Origin: Phycisphaerales bacterium UBA5793
Lineage (GTDB): Bacteria; Planctomycetota; Phycisphaerae; Phycisphaerales; UBA5793
Length of the DNA stretch: 64,000 nt
Assembly: GCA_002418285.1 (NCBI GenBank)
Contig: DIDT01000018.1
Coordinates: 90,309 to 154,308 of the forward strand
Reading direction: 5' to 3'
Shown here: in pieces, positions 28,558 to 46,582 of the stretch
Numbering within the stretch: the first letter of the stretch is position 1
Layout of the letters: each line of letters opens with the position of its first letter
Position numbers and translations under genes: made by a program
The notes under the pieces: model-generated
What the model was told of the DNA's origin: nothing
The model's database searches: none
Seen by the model: only the letters and a program-made list of their open reading frames with translations

Positions 28558-29340
28558 TCAAACGCATGCTTCGACTGGAATGCCGAAAAAGCGAGCCGTG
28601 TTGGCGTTGATGACCTCGTGAAACGCCTCCCACGACTCGCCACGCAACTCCGCCACGAATCGAGCCGTGTCGGCGGCGTACTGCGGCTCGTTGGGGTAGA
28701 TCTTGCGGTGGGGTTCGGGCGTCAGGAAGGGGGCGTCGGTCTCGATCATGATCCGATCAGCCGGCGTAATCTGCGCCGCTTCCCGGATACTGCCGGCGTT
28801 CTTGAATGTCACGATGCCGGTGTAACTGATCATCGCGCCAAGGTCGAGTACATCGCGAGCATCATCCCGTCCACCCGTAAAGCAGTGAAACACGAACCGC
28901 TCACCCGCCAGGCCGCTGGCCCGGAAGATCGGCAACAGTTCATCAAACGCCTCGCGGCAGTGGACAATGATCGGCAGGCTCAGCCCGCTTCCCTTGATCA
29001 CATCCAGTTGTTCGGCGAGCACGCGGCGCTGAACCTCCAGCGGCGGATGGTCATAGTGCTTGTCCATGCCGAGTTCGCCAAAGGCCACGCACCGGTCGGC
29101 TCGCGCGACCCTGAGCATCGCGTCCCAGTCGGCAGGCTCATCGGCGTGCAGGGGATGCACGCCGGCCGAGCACCACACATTTGAGTGCCCCTCGGCCAGC
29201 CGCAGGCAGTCGTGGGCATTGGCGGTGGTGGTGCAGACGGTAATCGCCCCGACCACGCCACGCAGGCGAGCTGCCTTGAGGACCGCCGGGACGCGACCGG
29301 TGTACTGAGGAAAGGTGAGATGGCAGTGGGTGTCGATCAC
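28558..29340 (-). CDS. tatD: TatD-family metal-dependent hydrolase
   Basis: It has 'MIDTHCHLTF', 'GELGMDKHY', 'IIVHCREA', 'VFHCFTG' and 'IMIETDAPFL'. Confidence 0.9.
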   Translation of the reverse strand: MIDTHCHLTFPQYTGRVPAVLKAARLRGVVGAITVCTTTANAHDCLRLAEGHSNVWCSAGVHPLHADEPADWDAMLRVARADRCVAFGELGMDKHYDHPPLEVQRRVLAEQLDVIKGSGLSLPIIVHCREAFDELLPIFRASGLAGERFVFHCFTGGRDDARDVLDLGAMISYTGIVTFKNAGSIREAAQITPADRIMIETDAPFLTPEPHRKIYPNEPQYAADTARFVAELRGESWEAFHEVINANTARFFGIPVEACV

Positions 29341-29544: not shown

Positions 29545-30492
29545 ATGTCGAAGATCCTGCGTAATGGCGTTGCATTGGGCATCGCCGCGATGGCTCTGGC
29601 TTCCGTGGCGAATGCTCAGGTGCTCCGCCCCTCGACGCCGCATGCGGCGTTCAACTACATTCCATTTGGAGGAACCGGACAGGTTTGCACCATGCATCAG
29701 GTGTTCGACCGTTCGCTCTGGAGCGCTCCGATGGAGATCTCTGCCCTCGGCTTTTCAGTGTTTGATACAAACAATGGACAGCGGTATGACAGCGACGTCG
29801 CCATTCGTCTGGGCTACACCGAGAAGGTCCCCGGCCAGAACCCGCCGACTGGTCTTGACGGCGTACTTGCGAACAATCCGAGTGGATCGATGAACGAGGT
29901 CTTCAGCGGTCGGGTCTCTGAAGTGCTCGTTGCCGGCGGCACCGAAGCCTTCACATTCGTGATCCGCTTCGACAGGCCGTGGTGCTATGACCCCGCGCAG
30001 GGCAATCTGCTGGTCGAGATCAAGTCGTCCTGGGTCTCCGGCGCTGACCTCGCCGTCGGTCGAACGTCCGGCAGCGCTGAAGCATCTCGCGCGTACAACT
30101 CGACGCGCTTCGGCGACCTAGCCTCACCCACCACCGCCACCCGCATGGACTTCTACGAGGACGGTTGCAGCGGCGGCGGTCCTTCGCTCCGCGTCACGGG
30201 TGAGTGTCCCGGTCGCGTGACCGTCGCGTGGGGCGGCGCAACACCGAATCGTCCCATGGCGATCGTGTACGCGAATAACACTGGCAGCTTCGTCGTCCCC
30301 GGCGGACCTTGCGCCGGAACGCAACTCGGTCTCGGCACCAGCGGGATTCAGGTCGCCTTTCAGGGCGGAACCGGCTCGGGCTCCGGCCAGGTCAACAGCA
30401 ACGTGGGAACCGGTGTGTGCGGGCACTACATCCAGATGGTCGTAGTCTCCGGCAGCCCATGCGAGACGAGCAACGTCGTACAGTTGCCGTAA
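29545..30492 (+). CDS. Secreted protein, tandem family paralog 1: 'QVF' N-domain plus C-terminal 4-Cys module ending SNVVQLP
   Basis: Signal peptide ...ASVANA|Q and RBS GAGGAGG. It shares 'YDPAQGNLLVEI', 'ASRAYNS..FG' and 'ATRMDF' with paralogs 2-3. The C-terminal module is at nt 30175-30489. Confidence 0.85.
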   Translation: MSKILRNGVALGIAAMALASVANAQVLRPSTPHAAFNYIPFGGTGQVCTMHQVFDRSLWSAPMEISALGFSVFDTNNGQRYDSDVAIRLGYTEKVPGQNPPTGLDGVLANNPSGSMNEVFSGRVSEVLVAGGTEAFTFVIRFDRPWCYDPAQGNLLVEIKSSWVSGADLAVGRTSGSAEASRAYNSTRFGDLASPTTATRMDFYEDGCSGGGPSLRVTGECPGRVTVAWGGATPNRPMAIVYANNTGSFVVPGGPCAGTQLGLGTSGIQVAFQGGTGSGSGQVNSNVGTGVCGHYIQMVVVSGSPCETSNVVQLP

Positions 30493-30533
30493 GTTCAATC
30501 CTGCATTGAGAGCAGGAAACTCAGTCTTTCGGA

Positions 30534-30570
30534 GCAACCTCAGGCCGCGCCTGAGGTTGCTTTCCTTTTT
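30534..30570 (+). terminator. Rho-independent terminator after paralog 1
   Basis: GCAACCTCAGG-ccgcg-CCTGAGGTTGC (11-bp perfect stem) followed by TTTCCTTTTT. Confidence 0.75.
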
Positions 30571-30751: not shown

Positions 30752-31675
30752 ATGTCCCGCACCAGTCATTTGAGCGTGGCCGTCGCAGTCGCGGCAGCGG
30801 CATTCACGTCGTCGGCTCTCGCGCAGGTCTATCCGAATTTCGCCCATGAGCACTACAACAGCATGCCCTTCTGGACGGACGAAATCACATACCAGCAGGT
30901 CTTCGCCGCAGTGCAGTTTGGCTCTGCTCCCATCGAGATTCACTCAGTGGCCTTTGCGCCCTCGCCAGCCCATAACGGCGAAGAATTCCTGCTTGACCAG
31001 GTGCGAATTCATCTCGGCTACACCGACAAACAACCCGGCGAACTCTCGCCCGATCTCTCCGCCAACCCGCGCGGTTCCATGACTGAAGTCTGCAATGAGT
31101 TCAACTGCGAAGGTGTTATCGAGTCCGGCGGCGGCGACCACTTCTCGCTTCGCTTCGTCTTCACGACGTCGTTCTGCTATGACCCGGCCAACGGCAACCT
31201 GCTCGTCGAGATCCGGGCCGTGAATACGACGCTCATCGGCATTGCAACTTCGTGCTGTACCGGCATGCCGGCGGCATCACGTGCGTGGAATTCGTTCATG
31301 TTCGGCAACGGCGCCGACACCGTCGCGACGCGCATGGAGTTTCTCATCACCTCATGCGGCGGACCGATGCTGACGCTCGACGGCCACTGCCCAGGTCAGA
31401 TCGACGTCGCGTGGAGCAATGCGGCGCCCGGCGAACAGATGGGCATCGTCTATGCCCATTCGACCGGTTCATTCATGGTCCCCGGTGGACCCTGCGCCGG
31501 GACGCGACTGGGCCTCGGCGCCAATCGACTGCAATTGATCCGCACCGTAGACACCGGCTCTGGTCAGGGCGGCATCAGCGGCAACGCCGGAAGCGGCGCC
31601 TGTGGCGGATACCTTCAACTCGTCGTCGCATCCGGCAATCCCTGCACCGCCAGTAACGTGGCTCAGTTGCCCTGA
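30752..31675 (+). CDS. Secreted protein, tandem family paralog 2: 'YQQVF' N-domain plus C-terminal 4-Cys module ending SNVAQLP
   Basis: Signal peptide ...SSALA|Q. It has 'YQQVFAAVQFGSAPIEIHSVAF', 'YDPANGNLLVEI' and 'ASRAWNSFMFG'. The module is at nt 31358-31672. Confidence 0.85.
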   Translation: MSRTSHLSVAVAVAAAAFTSSALAQVYPNFAHEHYNSMPFWTDEITYQQVFAAVQFGSAPIEIHSVAFAPSPAHNGEEFLLDQVRIHLGYTDKQPGELSPDLSANPRGSMTEVCNEFNCEGVIESGGGDHFSLRFVFTTSFCYDPANGNLLVEIRAVNTTLIGIATSCCTGMPAASRAWNSFMFGNGADTVATRMEFLITSCGGPMLTLDGHCPGQIDVAWSNAAPGEQMGIVYAHSTGSFMVPGGPCAGTRLGLGANRLQLIRTVDTGSGQGGISGNAGSGACGGYLQLVVASGNPCTASNVAQLP

Positions 31676-32037: not shown

Positions 32038-32961
32038 ATGTCTCGGATCAACAAAGTGGCAACCGCGGCAGCTGTCGCGGTGGCGGTATTTGCGTCGTCG
32101 GCAGTCGCCCAGCTCTATCCAAACCATCCGCATGGCGGCTGGAACGGCATTCCGTTCTGGACCCCGCCGTGTGGCTATCAGCAGGTCTTCGCCGCCGGAC
32201 AGTTCGGCTCCTCGCCGATCCTCATCCACTCGTTGTCATTCGCGCCGGATTCGTTCTACAACGGCGAAGACTACATCATCAGCAACCTCGTCGTCCAGGT
32301 CGGGTACACCGACAAAGCGCCGGGCGGGCTTTCGGCCGACCTGCCCAGCAACGTGCGAGGCTCATTGACGCTGGTCATGAATTCGGCATCGTTCCATGGA
32401 ACGGTTGACTCGCAGGGGCCCGACCACTTCTCCATGAGACTCCCCTTCACCACTCCGTTCTGCTACGACCCCGCCAATGGCAACCTCCTGGTGCAGATCG
32501 ACCTGAACGGCAGCTCGCTTGGCATCGCCATTTCAACCACATATGGCCTGCCGGACTCCTCGCGCGCGTGGAATTCTTCGATCTTCGGCAACAGCACCGA
32601 CACCGTGGCTGCTCGCATGATGTTCGAGACTACGCCTTGCACCTCCGGCCTGACCCTCACCCTCGGAGGCCGATGCCCTGGCTCAATCAACGTCGCCTGG
32701 AGCAACGCAACGCCGAGTCGACAGATGGGCATCCTCTACGCCCGGGCAACAGGCAGTTTTGCCGTGCCCGGCGGACCATGCGCCGGAACCCGCCTCGGAC
32801 TGGGCTCCAACCAGCTCCAACTCGTGAACACCATCGGCACCGGCAATGGAACTGGCAACGTCAATGGCCAAGCCGGCTCGGGCGCCTGCGGCGGCTATGT
32901 CCAACTCGTCGTCGTCGACGGCAACCCCTGCACGACCAGCAACGTCTTGCCGTTGCCATAG
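32038..32961 (+). CDS. Secreted protein, tandem family paralog 3: 'YQQVF' N-domain plus C-terminal 4-Cys module ending SNVLPLP
   Basis: Signal peptide ...SSAVA|Q. It has 'YQQVFAAGQFGSSPILIHSLSF' and 'YDPANGNLLVQI'. The module is at nt 32644-32958. Confidence 0.85.
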   Translation: MSRINKVATAAAVAVAVFASSAVAQLYPNHPHGGWNGIPFWTPPCGYQQVFAAGQFGSSPILIHSLSFAPDSFYNGEDYIISNLVVQVGYTDKAPGGLSADLPSNVRGSLTLVMNSASFHGTVDSQGPDHFSMRLPFTTPFCYDPANGNLLVQIDLNGSSLGIAISTTYGLPDSSRAWNSSIFGNSTDTVAARMMFETTPCTSGLTLTLGGRCPGSINVAWSNATPSRQMGILYARATGSFAVPGGPCAGTRLGLGSNQLQLVNTIGTGNGTGNVNGQAGSGACGGYVQLVVVDGNPCTTSNVLPLP

Positions 32962-33005: not shown

Positions 33006-33044
33006 CAGACAACCTCACGCCTTCAGTGGGGTTGTCTGTTGTAT
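33006..33044 (+). terminator. Terminator-like hairpin after paralog 3
   Basis: CAGACAACCTCAC-gccttca-GTGGGGTTGTCTG (13-bp stem with one G-U), then TTGTAT, a weak U-tract. Confidence 0.5.
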
Positions 33045-33204: not shown

Positions 33205-34113
33205 ATGCGTACAAGCAAGATGATTTGTGGCCTCGCTGCCCTGGCGCTCGTCGGCGGAGGGAGTGTGGCGTGGGGACAGTTCACGAACGACGATCTGGAG
33301 ACCGGCGATTTCACCGGCTGGACCGTGCAGAACACGCCCAACGGCGTCGGCGCTCCGGGGGTTATCGAGCAGTATGACATTGACGGTGGGGGCCCGAAGC
33401 CTTCGAGCTATGCCGCCAAGTTTGCCGTGGGTCAGGCTCAGTTCCAGTCGGGCCAGCAGGAAGGTGTCGAGATGGTCCAGAGCCTCGATCTCGTCGATGG
33501 CGTGGAATATACCGTCAGCTATTCCTGGGCTACCAAGCGCGAGTCGAATTCCGGCAATGTGACTGGTGGCGTCTTCTCCGTCATCGTCGACGGTCAGATC
33601 GTCGGAACGCCCCTGGATTCGGGCGGCATCGGCGGCAGTTACGGCTTTTACAAATATGGTGAGTACTCCGCCACCTTTACCGCGTCGGGCACCGGGCCGC
33701 ACGAGGTGGGTGCACGCATCACCCGACCCTACCAGTCGCCTGGCGACGTGTTCTCCTATGTCGATGACTTCGACATCGATCCGCCAACTGGCGGTGGCGG
33801 CCCCTCGCTGCGTGCGATCGGTGATTGCCCGGGTCGGGTAACCGTCTCCTGGGCCAACGCAACTCCGAGTCGTCCGATGGCGATTGTCTACGCGAACAAC
33901 ACGGGTAGCTTCGTGGTCCCCGGCGGCCCCTGCGCGGGCACCCCCCTTGGACTCGGCACCAGCGGAATCCACATCGCTTACCAGGGTGGCACCGGTGGTG
34001 GTAGCGGTCAGGTTTCCACGAACATCGGAACGGGCGTGTGCGGCCACTACATTCAGATGGTGGTCGTATCCGGCAGCCCGTGTGAGACGAGCAACGTCGT
34101 CCAACTGCCGTAA
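33205..34113 (+). CDS. Secreted protein, tandem family paralog 4: different (jelly-roll/CBM-like 'GDFTGW') N-domain plus the same C-terminal 4-Cys module ending SNVVQLP
   Basis: Signal peptide ...SVAWG|Q and RBS AAGGAGGG. The N-domain is unrelated to paralogs 1-3. The module at nt 33796-34110 is about 86% identical in protein to paralog 1's module. Confidence 0.85.
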   Translation: MRTSKMICGLAALALVGGGSVAWGQFTNDDLETGDFTGWTVQNTPNGVGAPGVIEQYDIDGGGPKPSSYAAKFAVGQAQFQSGQQEGVEMVQSLDLVDGVEYTVSYSWATKRESNSGNVTGGVFSVIVDGQIVGTPLDSGGIGGSYGFYKYGEYSATFTASGTGPHEVGARITRPYQSPGDVFSYVDDFDIDPPTGGGGPSLRAIGDCPGRVTVSWANATPSRPMAIVYANNTGSFVVPGGPCAGTPLGLGTSGIHIAYQGGTGGGSGQVSTNIGTGVCGHYIQMVVVSGSPCETSNVVQLP

Positions 34114-34157: not shown

Positions 34158-34196
34158 CAACCTCATCCCGCGGCGGGATGAGGTTGCGTTTTTTTC
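34158..34196. terminator. Strong bidirectional rho-independent terminator
   Basis: CAACCTCATCCCGC/GCGGGATGAGGTTG (up to 14-bp complementary arms), followed by CGTTTTTTT on the + strand and by TTGTTGTTTG on the - strand. Confidence 0.8.
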
Positions 34197-34663: not shown

Positions 34664-36193
34664 TCAGATCGGGATGTCGTCGGACAGGTCCGCCGGGGCG
34701 GCCGGCTGCGCAGAACGCCCTCCCGCGGCACCTGCCGATGCGTAGGGCGAAGCACTCCCCCGGGGGCCGCGCGGGGCCTCGACTGGCGGCATCATGGGTG
34801 AGAAGTCCTTGAACTTCATGCTCGTGCCCACCCAGGTCAGTTCGACCGTGCCGGTCGGGCCGTTGCGCTGCTTGGCGACGATGAGTTCGGCAATATTGGA
34901 CGGTTCAAAATCCGGCTTGCTCTGGTTGTAGTAATCCTCGCGGTGCAGCATCATCACCACGTCCGCGTCCTGTTCGATCGAGCCTGATTCGCGCAGATCC
35001 GCCATCCGCGGGCGGTGATCTTCCCGATTCTCCGCGGCTCGGTTCAACTGGCTCAGGCAGATGACCGGAATGTTCAGTTCGCGCGCCAGCGACTTGACGC
35101 CACGGCTGATCTCCGCGACTTCCTGCTGGCGCGACTCGCGCGTCATACCCATCATCAACTGCAGATAGTCCACGATAATCAGCTTCACCTGGTGCTTGGC
35201 CACCATGCGACGAGCCTTGGCTCGCAATCCGAGCACGCTCAATCCCGGCGTGTCATCAATAAAGAGCGGAGCTTCGCTGAGACGGCCCATTGCGAACGCC
35301 AGTCGATCCCGTTCGGGCTTGGTAATCATGTTGCGCCGAAGTCTGCCTGAATCTACTTCCGCGTGGGATGCCAGCAGTCGCTCTCCCAACTGCTGCTTTC
35401 CCATCTCCAGGCTGAATACGCCGACCGGCGTGCTCATCATTGCAATATTCTCAGCGATGTTTAGTGCGAGCGCCGTCTTACCCATTGATGGACGTGCGGC
35501 GATGATGATCATTTCACCAGCTTGCAAACCAGAGAGCTTCTCGTCTAGTCCACGAAAATGCGTTTCGAGCCCGGTGATTCGGCCTTCCTCGCGAGCATGA
35601 ATTGACTCCATCACTTCGTGAATTATCTCGTTTAGTGACCGTGTACCTTCATGGTCAAACTGGAGCACGACGTCAAAGATCGCACGCTGGGCGGCGTCCA
35701 GAACATCGCGCACCTCGCCACCGTCGGTGTACGCCGCTTGCAGGATCTCGCCCGCGGCGCCGATGAGCCTCCGCACGAGAGCCTTCTCCGCCACCACCTT
35801 GGCGTAGTACGGCGCATTGATCGCCGCGGGAACACTCTCGGCAAGTTGAACGAGGTAATCGACACCGCCGACATCCGCCAGAACGCCTTTCTCCTCCAAC
35901 CGCTGGTGGAGCAGGGCGATGTCGCCGGCAGCATGCCGATCGTACAACTCGACGAGGGAGGCAAACACCGCGCCATGAGCCGGCCGGTAGAAGTCCTCAG
36001 GGGACTTGACGATCAGAATAACATCACCGATCACCTTGGGGTCGAGGATCATCGAACCCAGCAATGCCATCTCGGTTTCAACCGAGTGCGGCGGCAGGCG
36101 GTCAAAGAGGGCGCCGAGTTCCACCGAGTGACGCTCGCCGCGCCGACCGGAACGGCCGGGCGCACCTGAAGAATTGGCGGGAATCTGGGTCAT
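34664..36193 (-). CDS. dnaB: Replicative DNA helicase
   Basis: It has 'PPHSVETEMALLGSMILDP', Walker A 'AARPSMGKTALALNIA', 'IIVDYLQLM' and 'QLNRAAE'. Start set at ATG 36193. It carries an extra roughly 45-aa Ala/Pro/Gly-rich C-terminal tail. Confidence 0.95.
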   Translation of the reverse strand: MTQIPANSSGAPGRSGRRGERHSVELGALFDRLPPHSVETEMALLGSMILDPKVIGDVILIVKSPEDFYRPAHGAVFASLVELYDRHAAGDIALLHQRLEEKGVLADVGGVDYLVQLAESVPAAINAPYYAKVVAEKALVRRLIGAAGEILQAAYTDGGEVRDVLDAAQRAIFDVVLQFDHEGTRSLNEIIHEVMESIHAREEGRITGLETHFRGLDEKLSGLQAGEMIIIAARPSMGKTALALNIAENIAMMSTPVGVFSLEMGKQQLGERLLASHAEVDSGRLRRNMITKPERDRLAFAMGRLSEAPLFIDDTPGLSVLGLRAKARRMVAKHQVKLIIVDYLQLMMGMTRESRQQEVAEISRGVKSLARELNIPVICLSQLNRAAENREDHRPRMADLRESGSIEQDADVVMMLHREDYYNQSKPDFEPSNIAELIVAKQRNGPTGTVELTWVGTSMKFKDFSPMMPPVEAPRGPRGSASPYASAGAAGGRSAQPAAPADLSDDIPI

Positions 36194-36352
36194 GCGATCC
36201 TGGGGCGGTCGAAGTGCTGCGGGGTGACGGTTCGGCTCACGACCACACAGGGTATCACTTCCGCTCGTCACCGTCCGAGGATCGCCAGGTAGCCTGCCGG
36301 GGATCCACCATCAACGCACATCTGCCGCGCAGAATGGTTTGCAGACATGCGG

Positions 36353-42504: not shown

Positions 42505-44490
42505 ATGCAACCGAACCGGAGTTGCTTCATGCGTTTGACGGTCGGCATCGCCGTCCTTTGGACTTTCACCCTGACTCTGGCCGGACCGGTCACGCAGACG
42601 GACTGGTCCGCTGGTGGACAGGTTGACGGTCCGGTGCTGCACTGGAACGGCAGTTTTGCGGATCAGTCTGGTGTAGCGTGGCGGTCAGTCGAGGGGCAGA
42701 TCGCCCTCGCCGGGTCGCAGCGCGGCCAGGCAGTGCGAGTTGTGGTCGATGAAAACGCCGACCTGCCGCGCGGCGCAGCCGCCGGCGACTTCGACGGCGA
42801 TGGCCGCACCGACATCGTCATTGGCGATCCCGTCACCGATCCATTCAATCCGATCGGCGCCATCTACTGGTGGCACGCCGAAGCGAATGGGAGCTGGACC
42901 AGGGGATACGTCTCGCAAACGTACTACGGCATCAACTTCCTCACGACCGCCGACGTCGACGGCGACGGGGACACCGATATCGTCGCCGCCGCCTACTACG
43001 GCGCCATCGATCCTCCACCCCCGCCACCCGAGTATCGCAACGGTCGATACACGTGGTTCGAAAACGTCAACGGCGAGGGGTCTGCATGGGATGAGCACAC
43101 GGTCGGAGAGTTGTATTGGGGTGCGGAATACATCGACGTGGGTGACTTCGACGGCGATGGTGACTTGGATTTCGTCGGGGCGTCCTACCTCACGCGCGGC
43201 GTCTATGAGCAGTCGAATGACATTACCTGGTTTGAGAATCTCGATGGCCAGGGCGACGCATGGGAAGCGCACGGAGTCAGTGCCGTCTACAACAACGGAT
43301 ATGAAGCGCACTTTGTCGACCTCGACGGCGACGATGATCTCGACATCCTCGCCACCCATGCCGATCGAATCTCCTGGTGGGAAAACCGCACGGGAACCGG
43401 CGACGACCTCGTGGAACACGTCATCACGGCTTCGCTGATGAACGTCGGCTATGTCAATGCAGGAGATATCGACAACGACGGCGACCTCGACATCGTTGGC
43501 TCAACCTACAGCACTTCCTCTCTCTTCTGGTGGGAGAATTCCAATGGTCTCGGCACGGCGTGGCTCCAACATGTCATCGGTGCCCATCCCAAGGGCGAAC
43601 AGGTCGAACTCGTCGATATCGAGGGCGATGGTGATCTCGATATCGTGGGTGACCGTCGACCCAGCGGAACGTATGGCGCGTTGACGATCTATACCAATGT
43701 CGATGGAAACGGCTTCACGTGGAGCGGCCGGACGGTGTCGATCGAGTCGAACACCGACTACTCGATCGCGATCGCCGATGCCGACAGCGATGGAAAAGTC
43801 GATGTCCTCGTCGCGAGTGAGGATTACTATCGCGCTCTGGGCAAGCAGGTGTCGTTTTTCAACCTCTCGACCTTTGGCTCAAGCGGCAGCCTCACCAGTT
43901 CGATTCTCGACGGCGGAACGATGCCTGGCTGGGGCGTCATGGCCTGGGATGCCGATACCCACAACGGCACATCACTTGCGGTGGCGATCCGCGCATCTGA
44001 TGACGCGAACGACCTCGGTTCGTTCGTTCAGGTGCCGACCTCCGGCACCGACCTTGCCACGCTGGTAAACAGCAACGCCCGCTACGTGCAGTATCGTCTG
44101 ACGCTCTCCGGCGGATCGGAGGTCTCGCCCGTCATTCGCGAGCTGGGCATCGCTCGAGTGGGCGGGGGCAATGGGTTGATTCTTGCCGGACCCCCGCAGG
44201 CAACGGCCGGAAGGTCGCTTGAGCTGGGCGTCCAGTCGGATCAGATCGGAGCTCGCGTGGTCTTTGCCGGAGCAGTTTCGACCGGGCGCACACCCATTCC
44301 GCCATGCCCCGGGGTGACGGCCGGCTTGGCCTCGCCGATGCGATTGGGTGCTTCGTTCATCAACGCAAGTGGTGAAGCGAGACGATCCGTTCGGATTCCC
44401 CTCGCGGCGAAAGGTCGCATGCTGTATTTCCAGGCGCTCGACGCCTCCGATTGCGTGGTCAGCAACGTGGTCGCTATCCCGGTCGACTGA
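42505..44490 (+). CDS. Secreted FG-GAP/VCBS-repeat (integrin-alpha-like propeller) protein with relaxed C-terminal module
   Basis: Signal peptide present. It has repeated Ca-binding loops (DFDGDGRTDIV, DVDGDGDTDIV, DFDGDGDLDFV, DLDGDDDLDIL, DIDNDGDLDIV, DIEGDGDLDIV, DADSDGKVDVL) and 'W(F/W)EN' strands. The C-terminal module is at nt 44176-44487. Confidence 0.85.
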   Translation: MQPNRSCFMRLTVGIAVLWTFTLTLAGPVTQTDWSAGGQVDGPVLHWNGSFADQSGVAWRSVEGQIALAGSQRGQAVRVVVDENADLPRGAAAGDFDGDGRTDIVIGDPVTDPFNPIGAIYWWHAEANGSWTRGYVSQTYYGINFLTTADVDGDGDTDIVAAAYYGAIDPPPPPPEYRNGRYTWFENVNGEGSAWDEHTVGELYWGAEYIDVGDFDGDGDLDFVGASYLTRGVYEQSNDITWFENLDGQGDAWEAHGVSAVYNNGYEAHFVDLDGDDDLDILATHADRISWWENRTGTGDDLVEHVITASLMNVGYVNAGDIDNDGDLDIVGSTYSTSSLFWWENSNGLGTAWLQHVIGAHPKGEQVELVDIEGDGDLDIVGDRRPSGTYGALTIYTNVDGNGFTWSGRTVSIESNTDYSIAIADADSDGKVDVLVASEDYYRALGKQVSFFNLSTFGSSGSLTSSILDGGTMPGWGVMAWDADTHNGTSLAVAIRASDDANDLGSFVQVPTSGTDLATLVNSNARYVQYRLTLSGGSEVSPVIRELGIARVGGGNGLILAGPPQATAGRSLELGVQSDQIGARVVFAGAVSTGRTPIPPCPGVTAGLASPMRLGASFINASGEARRSVRIPLAAKGRMLYFQALDASDCVVSNVVAIPVD

Positions 44491-44806: not shown

Positions 44807-46582
44807 ATGCGCAAAGTTCACGTTGGAACCGCGGTCCTTGCCGCATGCCTCAGCTCTGCCGCACTCGCTCAGCAATGGCGACCGCTGACCCACCAGTCCA
44901 GCGTTCGGGTCTACGGCTACTTCCTGCTCATGGACGGTCGAGTTCTCGCCAATGAGTGCGAGCAGAGCGGCATCGCAACCACCCGCTGGTGGACCCTTAC
45001 GCCGGACAGTTCCGGCAGCTACCTCAACGGCACCTGGTCGCAGGTGGGCAGCACCGTCTACACGCATCTCTATTTCGCCTCGTCCATTACGCCTGCGGGC
45101 AAGGTTCTCGTCGCAGGCGGCGAATACAGCACCGGTGGTTCCGAGACCAACAAGTGCGAACTCTTCGACCCCATCGCCAACACGTGGTCGCCAGTCACGC
45201 CGCCGAGCGGCTGGAACAACATTGGCGACGCTCCCGCGGCGACGCTGCCCGATGGCCGCATGATCGTCGGCGATATCTTCGGCCGGCGCACCGCACTCTA
45301 CAACCCGGCTACCAACACGTTCTCAGCCGGGCCCAACAAACTCAACTCACGCACCACCGAAGAAACGTGGATCACGTTGCCCGATGGCACAGTGGCAACA
45401 TGGGATTGTTTTGGCCACCCGGGGTCCGAGCGCTATCTGCCTTCCACCAATCAGTGGATTTCCTGCGGCAACACGCCGGTTGATCTCGTCCTTCCCAACT
45501 CATTCGAAACCGGCGCCGGCATCGTGTTGCCCGACGGGCGGATGTTCGCCATCGGCGGAACGCCCCGCACCTGCTACTACCAGTATCCTCAGAACATCAA
45601 CGATCCGGGGACATGGACAGTTGGCCCGACGCCGCCCCTGGTGAATGGGCTTACCGTCGGAGCCGAAGATGCTCCTGCTGCACTGGCTCCCAATGGTCGC
45701 GTGCTCATGCCCCTCGGTCGAGTGTCCGCCGGTGGTGGCGAGTTCTTCGCGCCGACCTACTTCTTCGAGTACAACGGCAACAGCATCGTGCGCATCCCCG
45801 ACGCGCCCAATTCGAGCGGACCGCCATACGTCGGCCGTCTCCTGCTCCTGCCCACGGGCGAGATTCTGTGGACCGCAGGAACCGCGGATGCCTACCTCTA
45901 TACCAATGGCGGCTCGGCCAATCCGGCGTGGAAACCCGCTGTCACCGACGTGCCCGGCAATCTGCAGCGCCAACAGAGCTACACACTTCAGGGAACCCAA
46001 CTCACGGGCGTGTCCAACGGTTGCAGCTACGGTGACGAGTATGACCCGGCAACGAACTACCCGCTCATCCGCCTCGATAACACAAGCACGCGACTGGTGT
46101 ATTACGCCCGCACATTCAATCCCAGCACCCGACAGATCCAGACCGGCAACAGCATTCTCAGCGTTGGCTTCGAACTGGGAGGCAACGTGCCGGACGGTCC
46201 GTACGAACTTCGAGTCATCGCCAACGGCATCTCCTCCGATCCTGTCAATGTCCAGGTCGGCAATGGAGGCGGCATCAACCTGACCGTTACAGGCACCTGC
46301 CCGGGCTCGATCACCGTGCAGTGGTCCAATGCGCAGCCCAGCTCGACCGTTGCGCTGATCTATGCAAGGAACACCGGTTCGTTTGTGATTCCCTTCGGGC
46401 CGTGCCAGGGAACGGTTCTGGGTCTCGGGAACCAGGGCATCCGCTTGGTCAACACATTCGCATCCGATCCCGCAGGTGCTGGAAGTCGCAGTGGCTCCAT
46501 CTTCGCGCGGGCCTGCCACGACTACCTGCAGATGCATGATCTGCCGAACTGCACGTTGAGCAACGTGGCTCAGATCCCGTGA
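44807..46582 (+). CDS. Secreted kelch-type propeller protein (galactose/glyoxal-oxidase-like, with Ig-like domain) plus C-terminal 4-Cys module ending SNVAQIP
   Basis: Signal ...SSAALA|Q. It has kelch-like blades ('GKVLVAGGEY', 'LPDGRMIVG', 'LPDGRMFAIGG', 'APNGRVLMPLG'). 'YPLIRLDNTSTRLVYYART...YELRVIANGISS' resembles the E-set domain of glyoxal oxidases. The module is at nt 46274-46579. Confidence 0.8.
   Translation: MRKVHVGTAVLAACLSSAALAQQWRPLTHQSSVRVYGYFLLMDGRVLANECEQSGIATTRWWTLTPDSSGSYLNGTWSQVGSTVYTHLYFASSITPAGKVLVAGGEYSTGGSETNKCELFDPIANTWSPVTPPSGWNNIGDAPAATLPDGRMIVGDIFGRRTALYNPATNTFSAGPNKLNSRTTEETWITLPDGTVATWDCFGHPGSERYLPSTNQWISCGNTPVDLVLPNSFETGAGIVLPDGRMFAIGGTPRTCYYQYPQNINDPGTWTVGPTPPLVNGLTVGAEDAPAALAPNGRVLMPLGRVSAGGGEFFAPTYFFEYNGNSIVRIPDAPNSSGPPYVGRLLLLPTGEILWTAGTADAYLYTNGGSANPAWKPAVTDVPGNLQRQQSYTLQGTQLTGVSNGCSYGDEYDPATNYPLIRLDNTSTRLVYYARTFNPSTRQIQTGNSILSVGFELGGNVPDGPYELRVIANGISSDPVNVQVGNGGGINLTVTGTCPGSITVQWSNAQPSSTVALIYARNTGSFVIPFGPCQGTVLGLGNQGIRLVNTFASDPAGAGSRSGSIFARACHDYLQMHDLPNCTLSNVAQIP

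Follow-up and report, generated by a model that had tools for sequence, protein, structure and literature searches.

Within the window (the whole 64,000-nucleotide stretch of a Phycisphaerales genome that was analysed here), two genes of one tandem array, p1 and p4, end in closely similar C-terminal modules although their N-terminal domains are unrelated, and comparison with related genomes shows that the history of the module is decoupled from the history of the passengers to which it is attached. The p1/p4 pair is under purifying selection; the module in general is constrained, yet not more so than the passengers. Taking this jointly with the reading of the module as an anchoring domain, we consider it likely that the similarity between the two modules stems from an old module exchange, after which the silent sites decayed under purifying selection. 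The four array genes, p1 to p4, lie in tandem between a TatD-family gene and dnaB, and two further module carriers, p5 and a 661-aa ORF, are located outside the array:

28558..29340, minus strand: TatD-family gene, left border of the syntenic slot that holds the array
29545..30492, plus strand: p1, signal peptide, p1-type passenger and C-terminal module (315 aa; module 30175-30489, match E 6e-41)
30531..30563 (also 30535-30559), plus strand: terminator-like hairpin after p1, outer stem CAACCTCA/TGAGGTTG (terminator-like scan and stem pattern)
30752..31675, plus strand: p2, paralog of p1 whose module (31358-31672) belongs to another subclade
32038..32961, plus strand: p3, paralog of p2 (module 32644-32958)
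33010..33034, plus strand: hairpin after p3, outer stem as in the p1 hairpin (stem pattern)
33205..34113, plus strand: p4, signal peptide, CBM-like jelly-roll passenger unrelated to those of p1-p3, and C-terminal module (302 aa; module 33796-34110)
34158..34186, plus strand: terminator-like hairpin after p4, outer stem as in the p1 hairpin (terminator-like scan and stem pattern)
34664..36271, minus strand: DnaB helicase gene, bordering the syntenic slot on the right
44251..44481, plus strand: sixth module-like match, weak and divergent, at the C-terminal end of the ORF 42505-44490 (661 aa; E 2e-5 in an hmmsearch with the profile of the family, covering its positions 28-108)
44807..46582, plus strand: p5, 591-aa Kelch/glyoxal-oxidase-like protein with the fifth module (46265-46579; tblastn E 1e-23)

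The N-terminal domain is common to p1, p2 and p3, whereas that of p4 is unrelated to it and matches CBM16, CBM4, CBM22 and a porphyran-binding CBM; the AlphaFold2 model of the complete p4 protein has a pLDDT of 86.7. Both the p1 and the p4 ORF open with a signal-peptide-like sequence. The p2 module shares 55-57% identity with the p1 and p4 modules, and the p5 module shares 44-49% with the others. The comparison genomes are metagenome-assembled Phycisphaerae/Planctomycetota, in which p1 has orthologs that are 60-71% identical; the p3 ortholog in the genome of Phycisphaerales PDA_C_MAG.101 (hereinafter the PDA genome; locus L015) is 75% identical, and the p5 ortholog in PE_seawater30, the closest relative of the window genome that was found (84-87% protein identity), is 84% identical. 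The number of module genes in the TatD-dnaB slot differs between genomes, with one in Bin_17 (L001), two in the PDA genome and four in the window, and the p4 ortholog is located outside this slot, at a different locus, in both Bin_17 and the PDA genome. At positions 4374-5249 of L015, the p1 ortholog is a pseudogene that carries an in-frame stop and a frameshift inside the module; the p3 ortholog next to it is intact. Over the region that was checked (about 21 kb around the array), the window is identical to the metagenome contig JGI 3300029304. No sigma-70-like promoters were found in the array.

The segments 30175-30489 and 33796-34110 comprise the last 105 codons of the p1 and p4 ORFs and can be aligned in register without gaps. 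The homology begins at the first codon of the module and extends to the stop codon, with an identity of 27-32% in the flanks. The initial annotation had counted by hand that about 15 of the 105 residues differ, and 15 is indeed the exact count. In the DNA, there are 72 differences among the 315 nucleotides, of which 8 fall in first, 11 in second and 53 in third codon positions, such that 45 codons differ silently and 15 contain replacements; the two modules are thus 86% identical in protein and 23% divergent in nucleotide sequence. The last 28 codons (GTGVCGHYIQMVVVSGSPCETSNVVQLP) encode identical protein segments and show the 12 silent differences that had been noted, and all eight of the codon pairs quoted as examples are found there; the one correction is that these differences were all assigned to third positions, when 11 are third-position changes and one, TTG/CTG, is a first-position change. 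The segment MAIVYANNTGSFVV likewise shows six silent changes and zero replacements between the two modules, as described.

Could this similarity be the product of a recent gene conversion or a recent duplication? The tandem arrangement and the 86% protein identity would fit such an origin, all the more so given that conversion is demonstrably active elsewhere in the module family. The silent sites, on the other hand, speak against it: of the 90 residues conserved between p1 and p4, 45 are encoded by different codons, compared to 50-53 +/- 4.4 expected under independent draws from the codon usage of this genome, pS reaches 0.61 along with the 23% nucleotide divergence, and the longest identical run spans 17 nt (permutation P = 0.51). 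The silent sites of the two modules are as scrambled as random draws, that is, saturated, and therefore no exchange between them is recent, just as the initial annotation had argued. The silent-site data rule out recent conversion or duplication of this pair, and we give this explanation practically no credence.

The same annotation had gone on to state that selection maintains the exact C-terminal sequence in both copies; taken as a history of two copies held constant since an ancient separation, this part is not supported, given that the modules cluster by genome rather than by passenger. In bootstrapped neighbour-joining trees of the modules, the p1-p4 grouping is recovered at 94% and that of three neighbouring PDA-genome modules at 100%, with 0% for the orthology groupings; only the supports for (p1,p4) and for the PDA trio were relied on, and the N-domain of L004 (PLA1) is not of the p1 type. 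According to both the identity matrices and the trees, paralogous module copies within a genome are closer to one another than orthologs are between genomes, which is the pattern of concerted evolution. Thus, the p1 module is 70-71% identical to that of its Bin_17 ortholog and the p4 module is 62% identical to that of its PDA ortholog, compared to 71-76% for the N-domains in these p1 and p4 comparisons (71% for the N-domain of p4 and its ortholog). Across the p1 orthologs, the identity of the N-domain stays at 69-76% whereas that of the module ranges from 38% to 70%; across the p4 orthologs, the respective values are 71-73% and 31% to 62%. The module of the p4 ortholog is even more similar to that of p1 (67%) than to that of p4 itself (62%).

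In two related genomes, conversion of the module is visible in the DNA, at less advanced stages of decay. Bin_17 and the PDA genome contain tracts of near-identity, compared to the 17-nt longest run between p1 and p4. The p1 and p4 orthologs of Bin_17 are identical at 167 of 168 nt starting from exactly the first codon of the module, with no similarity upstream, although the copy in question lies at a contig end, a position in which repeats are assembled least reliably. The PDA genome contains three genes in a row whose N-domains are unrelated; their modules are separated by a dS of only 0.23-0.39 and form a mosaic of tracts 97-100% identical. As a separate observation, several contigs (L007, L025, L026, L030 and L033) terminate inside the module, four of them at profile position 57-58 and a fifth at position 69; this suggests that near-identical module repeats split short-read assemblies, as such repeats are expected to do.

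The array also has non-coding similarity beyond the stop codons. Hairpins follow p1, p3 and p4 at a distance of 40-50 nt from the stops, with a common outer stem (CAACCTCA/TGRGGTTG) and with inner stems and loops that differ. In the entire window, this stem pattern occurs at these three sites only, with 0 expected by chance, and a search of the loci from other genomes yielded none. These observations suggest that the copied unit included the terminator.

The proposed exchange between p1 and p4 draws on the incongruence of the trees, the common hairpin and the analogy with related genomes, and would have left no surviving trace in the coding DNA. In this scenario, the 3' end of p4, including the module and probably the terminator hairpin too, would have been copied from, or converted by, a p1-like neighbour in the array. 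This event would postdate the split of this lineage from the lineages of Bin_17 and the PDA genome and, under a clock, would fall at roughly a third to half of the depth of that split, because dN is 0.10 within the p1/p4 pair versus 0.24-0.31 between the lineages. Following the exchange, the silent sites would have been randomised while the protein sequence was kept by selection, most strictly in residues 27-54 and 78-105. The scenario resembles concerted evolution, or interlocus gene conversion, in bacterial surface-protein families, in which copies within a genome are likewise more similar than orthologs, tandem arrays are involved and mosaic tracts stop at domain borders; within the module family, the entire range from identical DNA to saturation of silent sites is represented. 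It differs from these cases in that only the C-terminal module is homogenised, between genes with unrelated passengers, and in that the p1/p4 event is old, with no DNA tract left.

Two alternatives to an exchange have to be weighed here. If the p1 and p4 modules had been separate since ancient times, had never been exchanged, and had been kept near-constant by unusually strong selection, as the initial annotation implied, then saturated silent sites, the lack of a detectable conversion tract and the low omega of the pair (0.035-0.083) would all be expected. However, copies older than the split from Bin_17 and the PDA genome should resemble their orthologs most, and instead p1 and p4 are 86% identical to each other versus 62-71% to the orthologs; the orthology signal is gone, as indicated by the 67% and 62% identity of p1 and p4 to the module of the p4 ortholog. 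Furthermore, the module is not exceptionally constrained in clean orthologs (omega 0.125 versus 0.067 for the passenger core, see below), and p4-type passengers in other lineages bear modules that are only about 30% identical, so that we regard ancient, never-exchanged copies as improbable. The clustering of modules by genome alongside random silent sites in p1 and p4 could also be produced at the protein level, without any exchange of DNA, if all modules of a genome interacted with one shared partner, which is plausible for a C-terminal anchor, such that parallel substitutions caused the modules to converge while the silent sites drifted. Such co-evolution would require about 20 or more parallel replacements and does not account for the modules p2 and p3 of the same genome, which are of a different subtype (55-57% identical). 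Moreover, in related genomes the same clustering comes with identical or nearly identical DNA, silent sites included, which indicates conversion rather than convergence, and the non-coding hairpin common to p1, p3 and p4 is beyond the reach of selection at the protein level. There is, accordingly, only a small chance that convergence explains the pair, and an old module exchange remains the preferred explanation.

As for selection on the module, the Nei-Gojobori estimates for the p1/p4 pair (pS 0.61, dS 1.2-1.3; pN 0.096, dN 0.10) correspond to an omega of 0.08 (0.083; bootstrap interval 0.035-0.16), and maximum likelihood under a codon model yields an omega of 0.035 with a dS of 2.6, these absolute values being upper bounds only, as in every comparison that involves window sequences, all of which have saturated dS. 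The likelihood-ratio test against omega = 1 gives 2*deltalnL = 98. With an omega of 0.04-0.08 and a likelihood-ratio statistic of this size, the claim that the pair is subject to purifying selection and not to relaxed constraint holds. For several pairs of paralogs, the dS estimated by maximum likelihood under the codon model went to infinity; these values were dropped, and only dN and pS were used. The 15 replacements are located in columns that are variable across the 289 family members (entropy of 2.53 versus 1.80 bits; Mann-Whitney p = 0.003). Within this family set, conservation is highest in residues 27-54 and in residues 78-105, the two blocks free of replacements.

The comparison of module and passengers that the initial annotation had proposed as a check comes out differently from what it anticipated: in close orthologs, the dN/dS of the module is not lower than that of the passenger, the very outcome that it had named as refuting its claim. 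Absolute dN/dS values between the window and its orthologs were set aside because pS is 0.5-0.66 throughout, and close orthologs from Bin_17 and PLA1 were used instead. Pooling five such pairs with a dS of about 0.5 gives omega values of 0.125 (0.085-0.174) in the module, 0.067 (0.045-0.096) in the passenger core, that is, the 140 codons upstream of the module, and 0.126 when the N-terminal part is taken in full. Of five ortholog pairs at greater distance, all have a higher dN in the module (0.119-0.308) than in the passenger (0.082-0.219). The module dN is below that of the passenger only among the window paralogs p1-p3, and this comparison is confounded because the history of the module is decoupled from that of the genes. 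An excess of silent over replacement changes in a conserved domain reflects routine purifying selection and is unremarkable on its own; the case of p1 and p4 cautions that pairwise dN/dS between paralogs can be right about selection and still miss the origin of the similarity in module exchange.

The module is a member of a large family. An AlphaFold2 model of the module alone shows a nine-strand beta-sandwich with a pLDDT of 96.7, and thus the module is predicted to adopt an Ig-like beta-sandwich fold; it contains four conserved cysteines and ends in the conserved motif C-x-[TS]-S-N-V-x-Q-[IL]-P. A Foldseek search reveals generic FN3/Ig similarity only, the best PDB matches being FN3 monobodies and Ig domains (TM-scores of 0.45-0.55, best E-value 8e-3). 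A sequence search of the PDB with the module found no relative, p1-p4 had no match in Pfam-A or NCBIfam (hmmscan, E <= 1), and we found no description of the domain in the literature. An exhaustive HMMER search retrieved 2,207 representative clusters (at 50% identity), including 1,338 at E <= 1e-10, and all named or genome-derived examples come from Phycisphaerae/Planctomycetota. In each of the 234 carriers that were fetched, no more than 5 residues separate the end of a module copy from the C-terminus, the typical ending being ...C-x-T-S-N-V-V-Q-I-P(Q); an extra internal copy is present in 11 of the 234, and 61 of the 234 are 160 aa or shorter and consist of little beyond a signal peptide and the module. 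Among the passengers are SBBP, Kelch and FG-GAP propellers, CBM96, beta-helix, DUF4394 and S8 peptidase domains, a repertoire that is usual for surface proteins. A profile built from the five modules of the window had returned only proteins of <=184 aa, probably owing to a length limit of that search, which would have been compatible with a stand-alone family of small proteins; this was rejected, given that carriers can be as long as 1,345 aa and clearly have a C-terminal copy. In a poorly studied, mostly uncultured lineage, a large part of the secreted and surface proteome bears a member of this large uncatalogued family at the C-terminus. Tandem arrays of 3-4 module genes, often with unrelated passengers, were also seen in L005, L010, L012, L013, L017 and L034.

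So what might be the function of such a module? A clue comes from homologs of the p1-type and p4-type passengers, which end, at the same junction, in a PEP-CTERM, a GC-type dockerin or the module. The homologs P0072 and P0100 match PEP-CTERM (TIGR02595; cut-off of 16 bits) with scores of 28.1 and 28.7 bits, respectively, and P0060 and P0067 match the GC-type dockerin (NF041540; cut-off of 29 bits) with scores of 33.2 and 33.7 bits. Neither signature is detectable in p1-p4: there is no NCBIfam match to PEP-CTERM, with the proteins ending in ...CETSNVVQLP without a hydrophobic helix, and there is no match to the GC-type dockerin with its CxxNCDxS...LNVxDFxCF...GC repeats. The p4 passenger type displays the behaviour known as choice-of-anchor, one passenger with alternative anchors; with respect to the choice-of-anchor C family (TIGR04362; cut-off of 120 bits), p4 has no match and the homolog P0060 scores only 21.9 bits (E 1.7e-4). 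Because homologous passengers bear PEP-CTERM or the GC-type dockerin at the same junction, we infer, with less confidence than we have in the history of the module, that it may be a lineage-specific C-terminal anchoring or sorting domain, by which passengers, glycan-binding ones among them, would be tethered either to the cell surface or to a partner that they share. The argument is purely architectural. In that case, all module copies of a genome would stay compatible with the partner through repeated homogenisation.

The known anchors provide both parallels and differences. The module holds exactly the position that PEP-CTERM and the GC-type dockerin occupy on choice-of-anchor passengers, in homologs of both the p1 and the p4 type. 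However, PEP-CTERM is a short motif followed by a membrane helix, whereas the module folds as a domain of about 105 residues and has no sequence similarity to it, and the GC-type dockerin, a pair of repeats of about 25 residues, likewise has no sequence similarity to the module. The closest parallel in shape is the C-terminal domain of type IX secretion in Bacteroidota (TIGR04183), also an Ig-like beta-sandwich of about 80-105 residues that is located at the extreme C-terminus of diverse secreted passengers and is present in many copies per genome; the module likewise combines a predicted beta-sandwich (AlphaFold2) with a position at the extreme C-terminus of secreted proteins in 234/234 carriers. 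The differences are the host, Phycisphaerae/Planctomycetota in the case of the module, and the four conserved cysteines, stand-alone versions and internal duplicates, which are atypical of type IX domains. Moreover, in the search of Pfam-A and NCBIfam, none of p1-p4 matched TIGR04183 or its Pfam counterpart Por_Secre_tail at E <= 1. To our knowledge, type IX secretion has not been described in Phycisphaerae/Planctomycetota. The fibronectin type III and Ig-like fold is similar to the module as an all-beta sandwich, but the TM-scores are only 0.45-0.55 and no relative by sequence was found in the PDB.

As an alternative to an anchor, the module could serve general purposes, as a binding or spacer domain of Ig-like fold such as a lectin or an adhesin, the C-terminal position being a mere habit of domain shuffling. 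The stand-alone proteins with a signal peptide and a module (61/234) and the internal copies (11/234) fit such a domain equally well, the Foldseek similarity is generic, and neither a partner nor a processing enzyme was found; but 234/234 carriers retain a copy at the very C-terminus, where the terminal motif is conserved, and in two unrelated passenger families the module replaces PEP-CTERM or GC-type dockerin tails at the same junction, both of which speak against it. We therefore view a general-purpose domain as possible but doubtful. Going further than an anchor as such, one can imagine that the module defines an undescribed, Phycisphaerae-specific sorting or anchoring class, in which a dedicated receptor or processing machinery would read the invariant C-terminal hairpin and the Q-[IL]-P end, and recurrent conversion within a genome would ensure that dozens of cargo genes continue to fit a lineage-specific partner that evolves along with them, comparable to the specificity between cohesin and dockerin; this extended hypothesis is speculative, and we hold it only tentatively. 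Should the module indeed be an anchoring or sorting domain, it would provide a simple sequence handle for the prediction of surface proteomes and would point to a partner system.

Several observations on individual loci can be added. The gene for P0070 (284 aa) at positions 4001-4855 of L037, a locus from the same sequencing run as the array of the window (SRR925398), encodes a module that is 77-78% identical to those of p1 and p4 and is probably a third member of the p1/p4 clade, from another locus of the same genome; three further small genes follow it in L037. Finally, the labels of L004, L011 and L012 (WYBR01, 'Vicinamibacteraceae bacterium PLA1') and of L002 and L005 (JBDZVA01, 'Planctomycetaceae bacterium') look inconsistent with the content of these contigs, and the module orthologs of PLA1 are 88-97% identical to those of the Phycisphaerae genome Bin_17.
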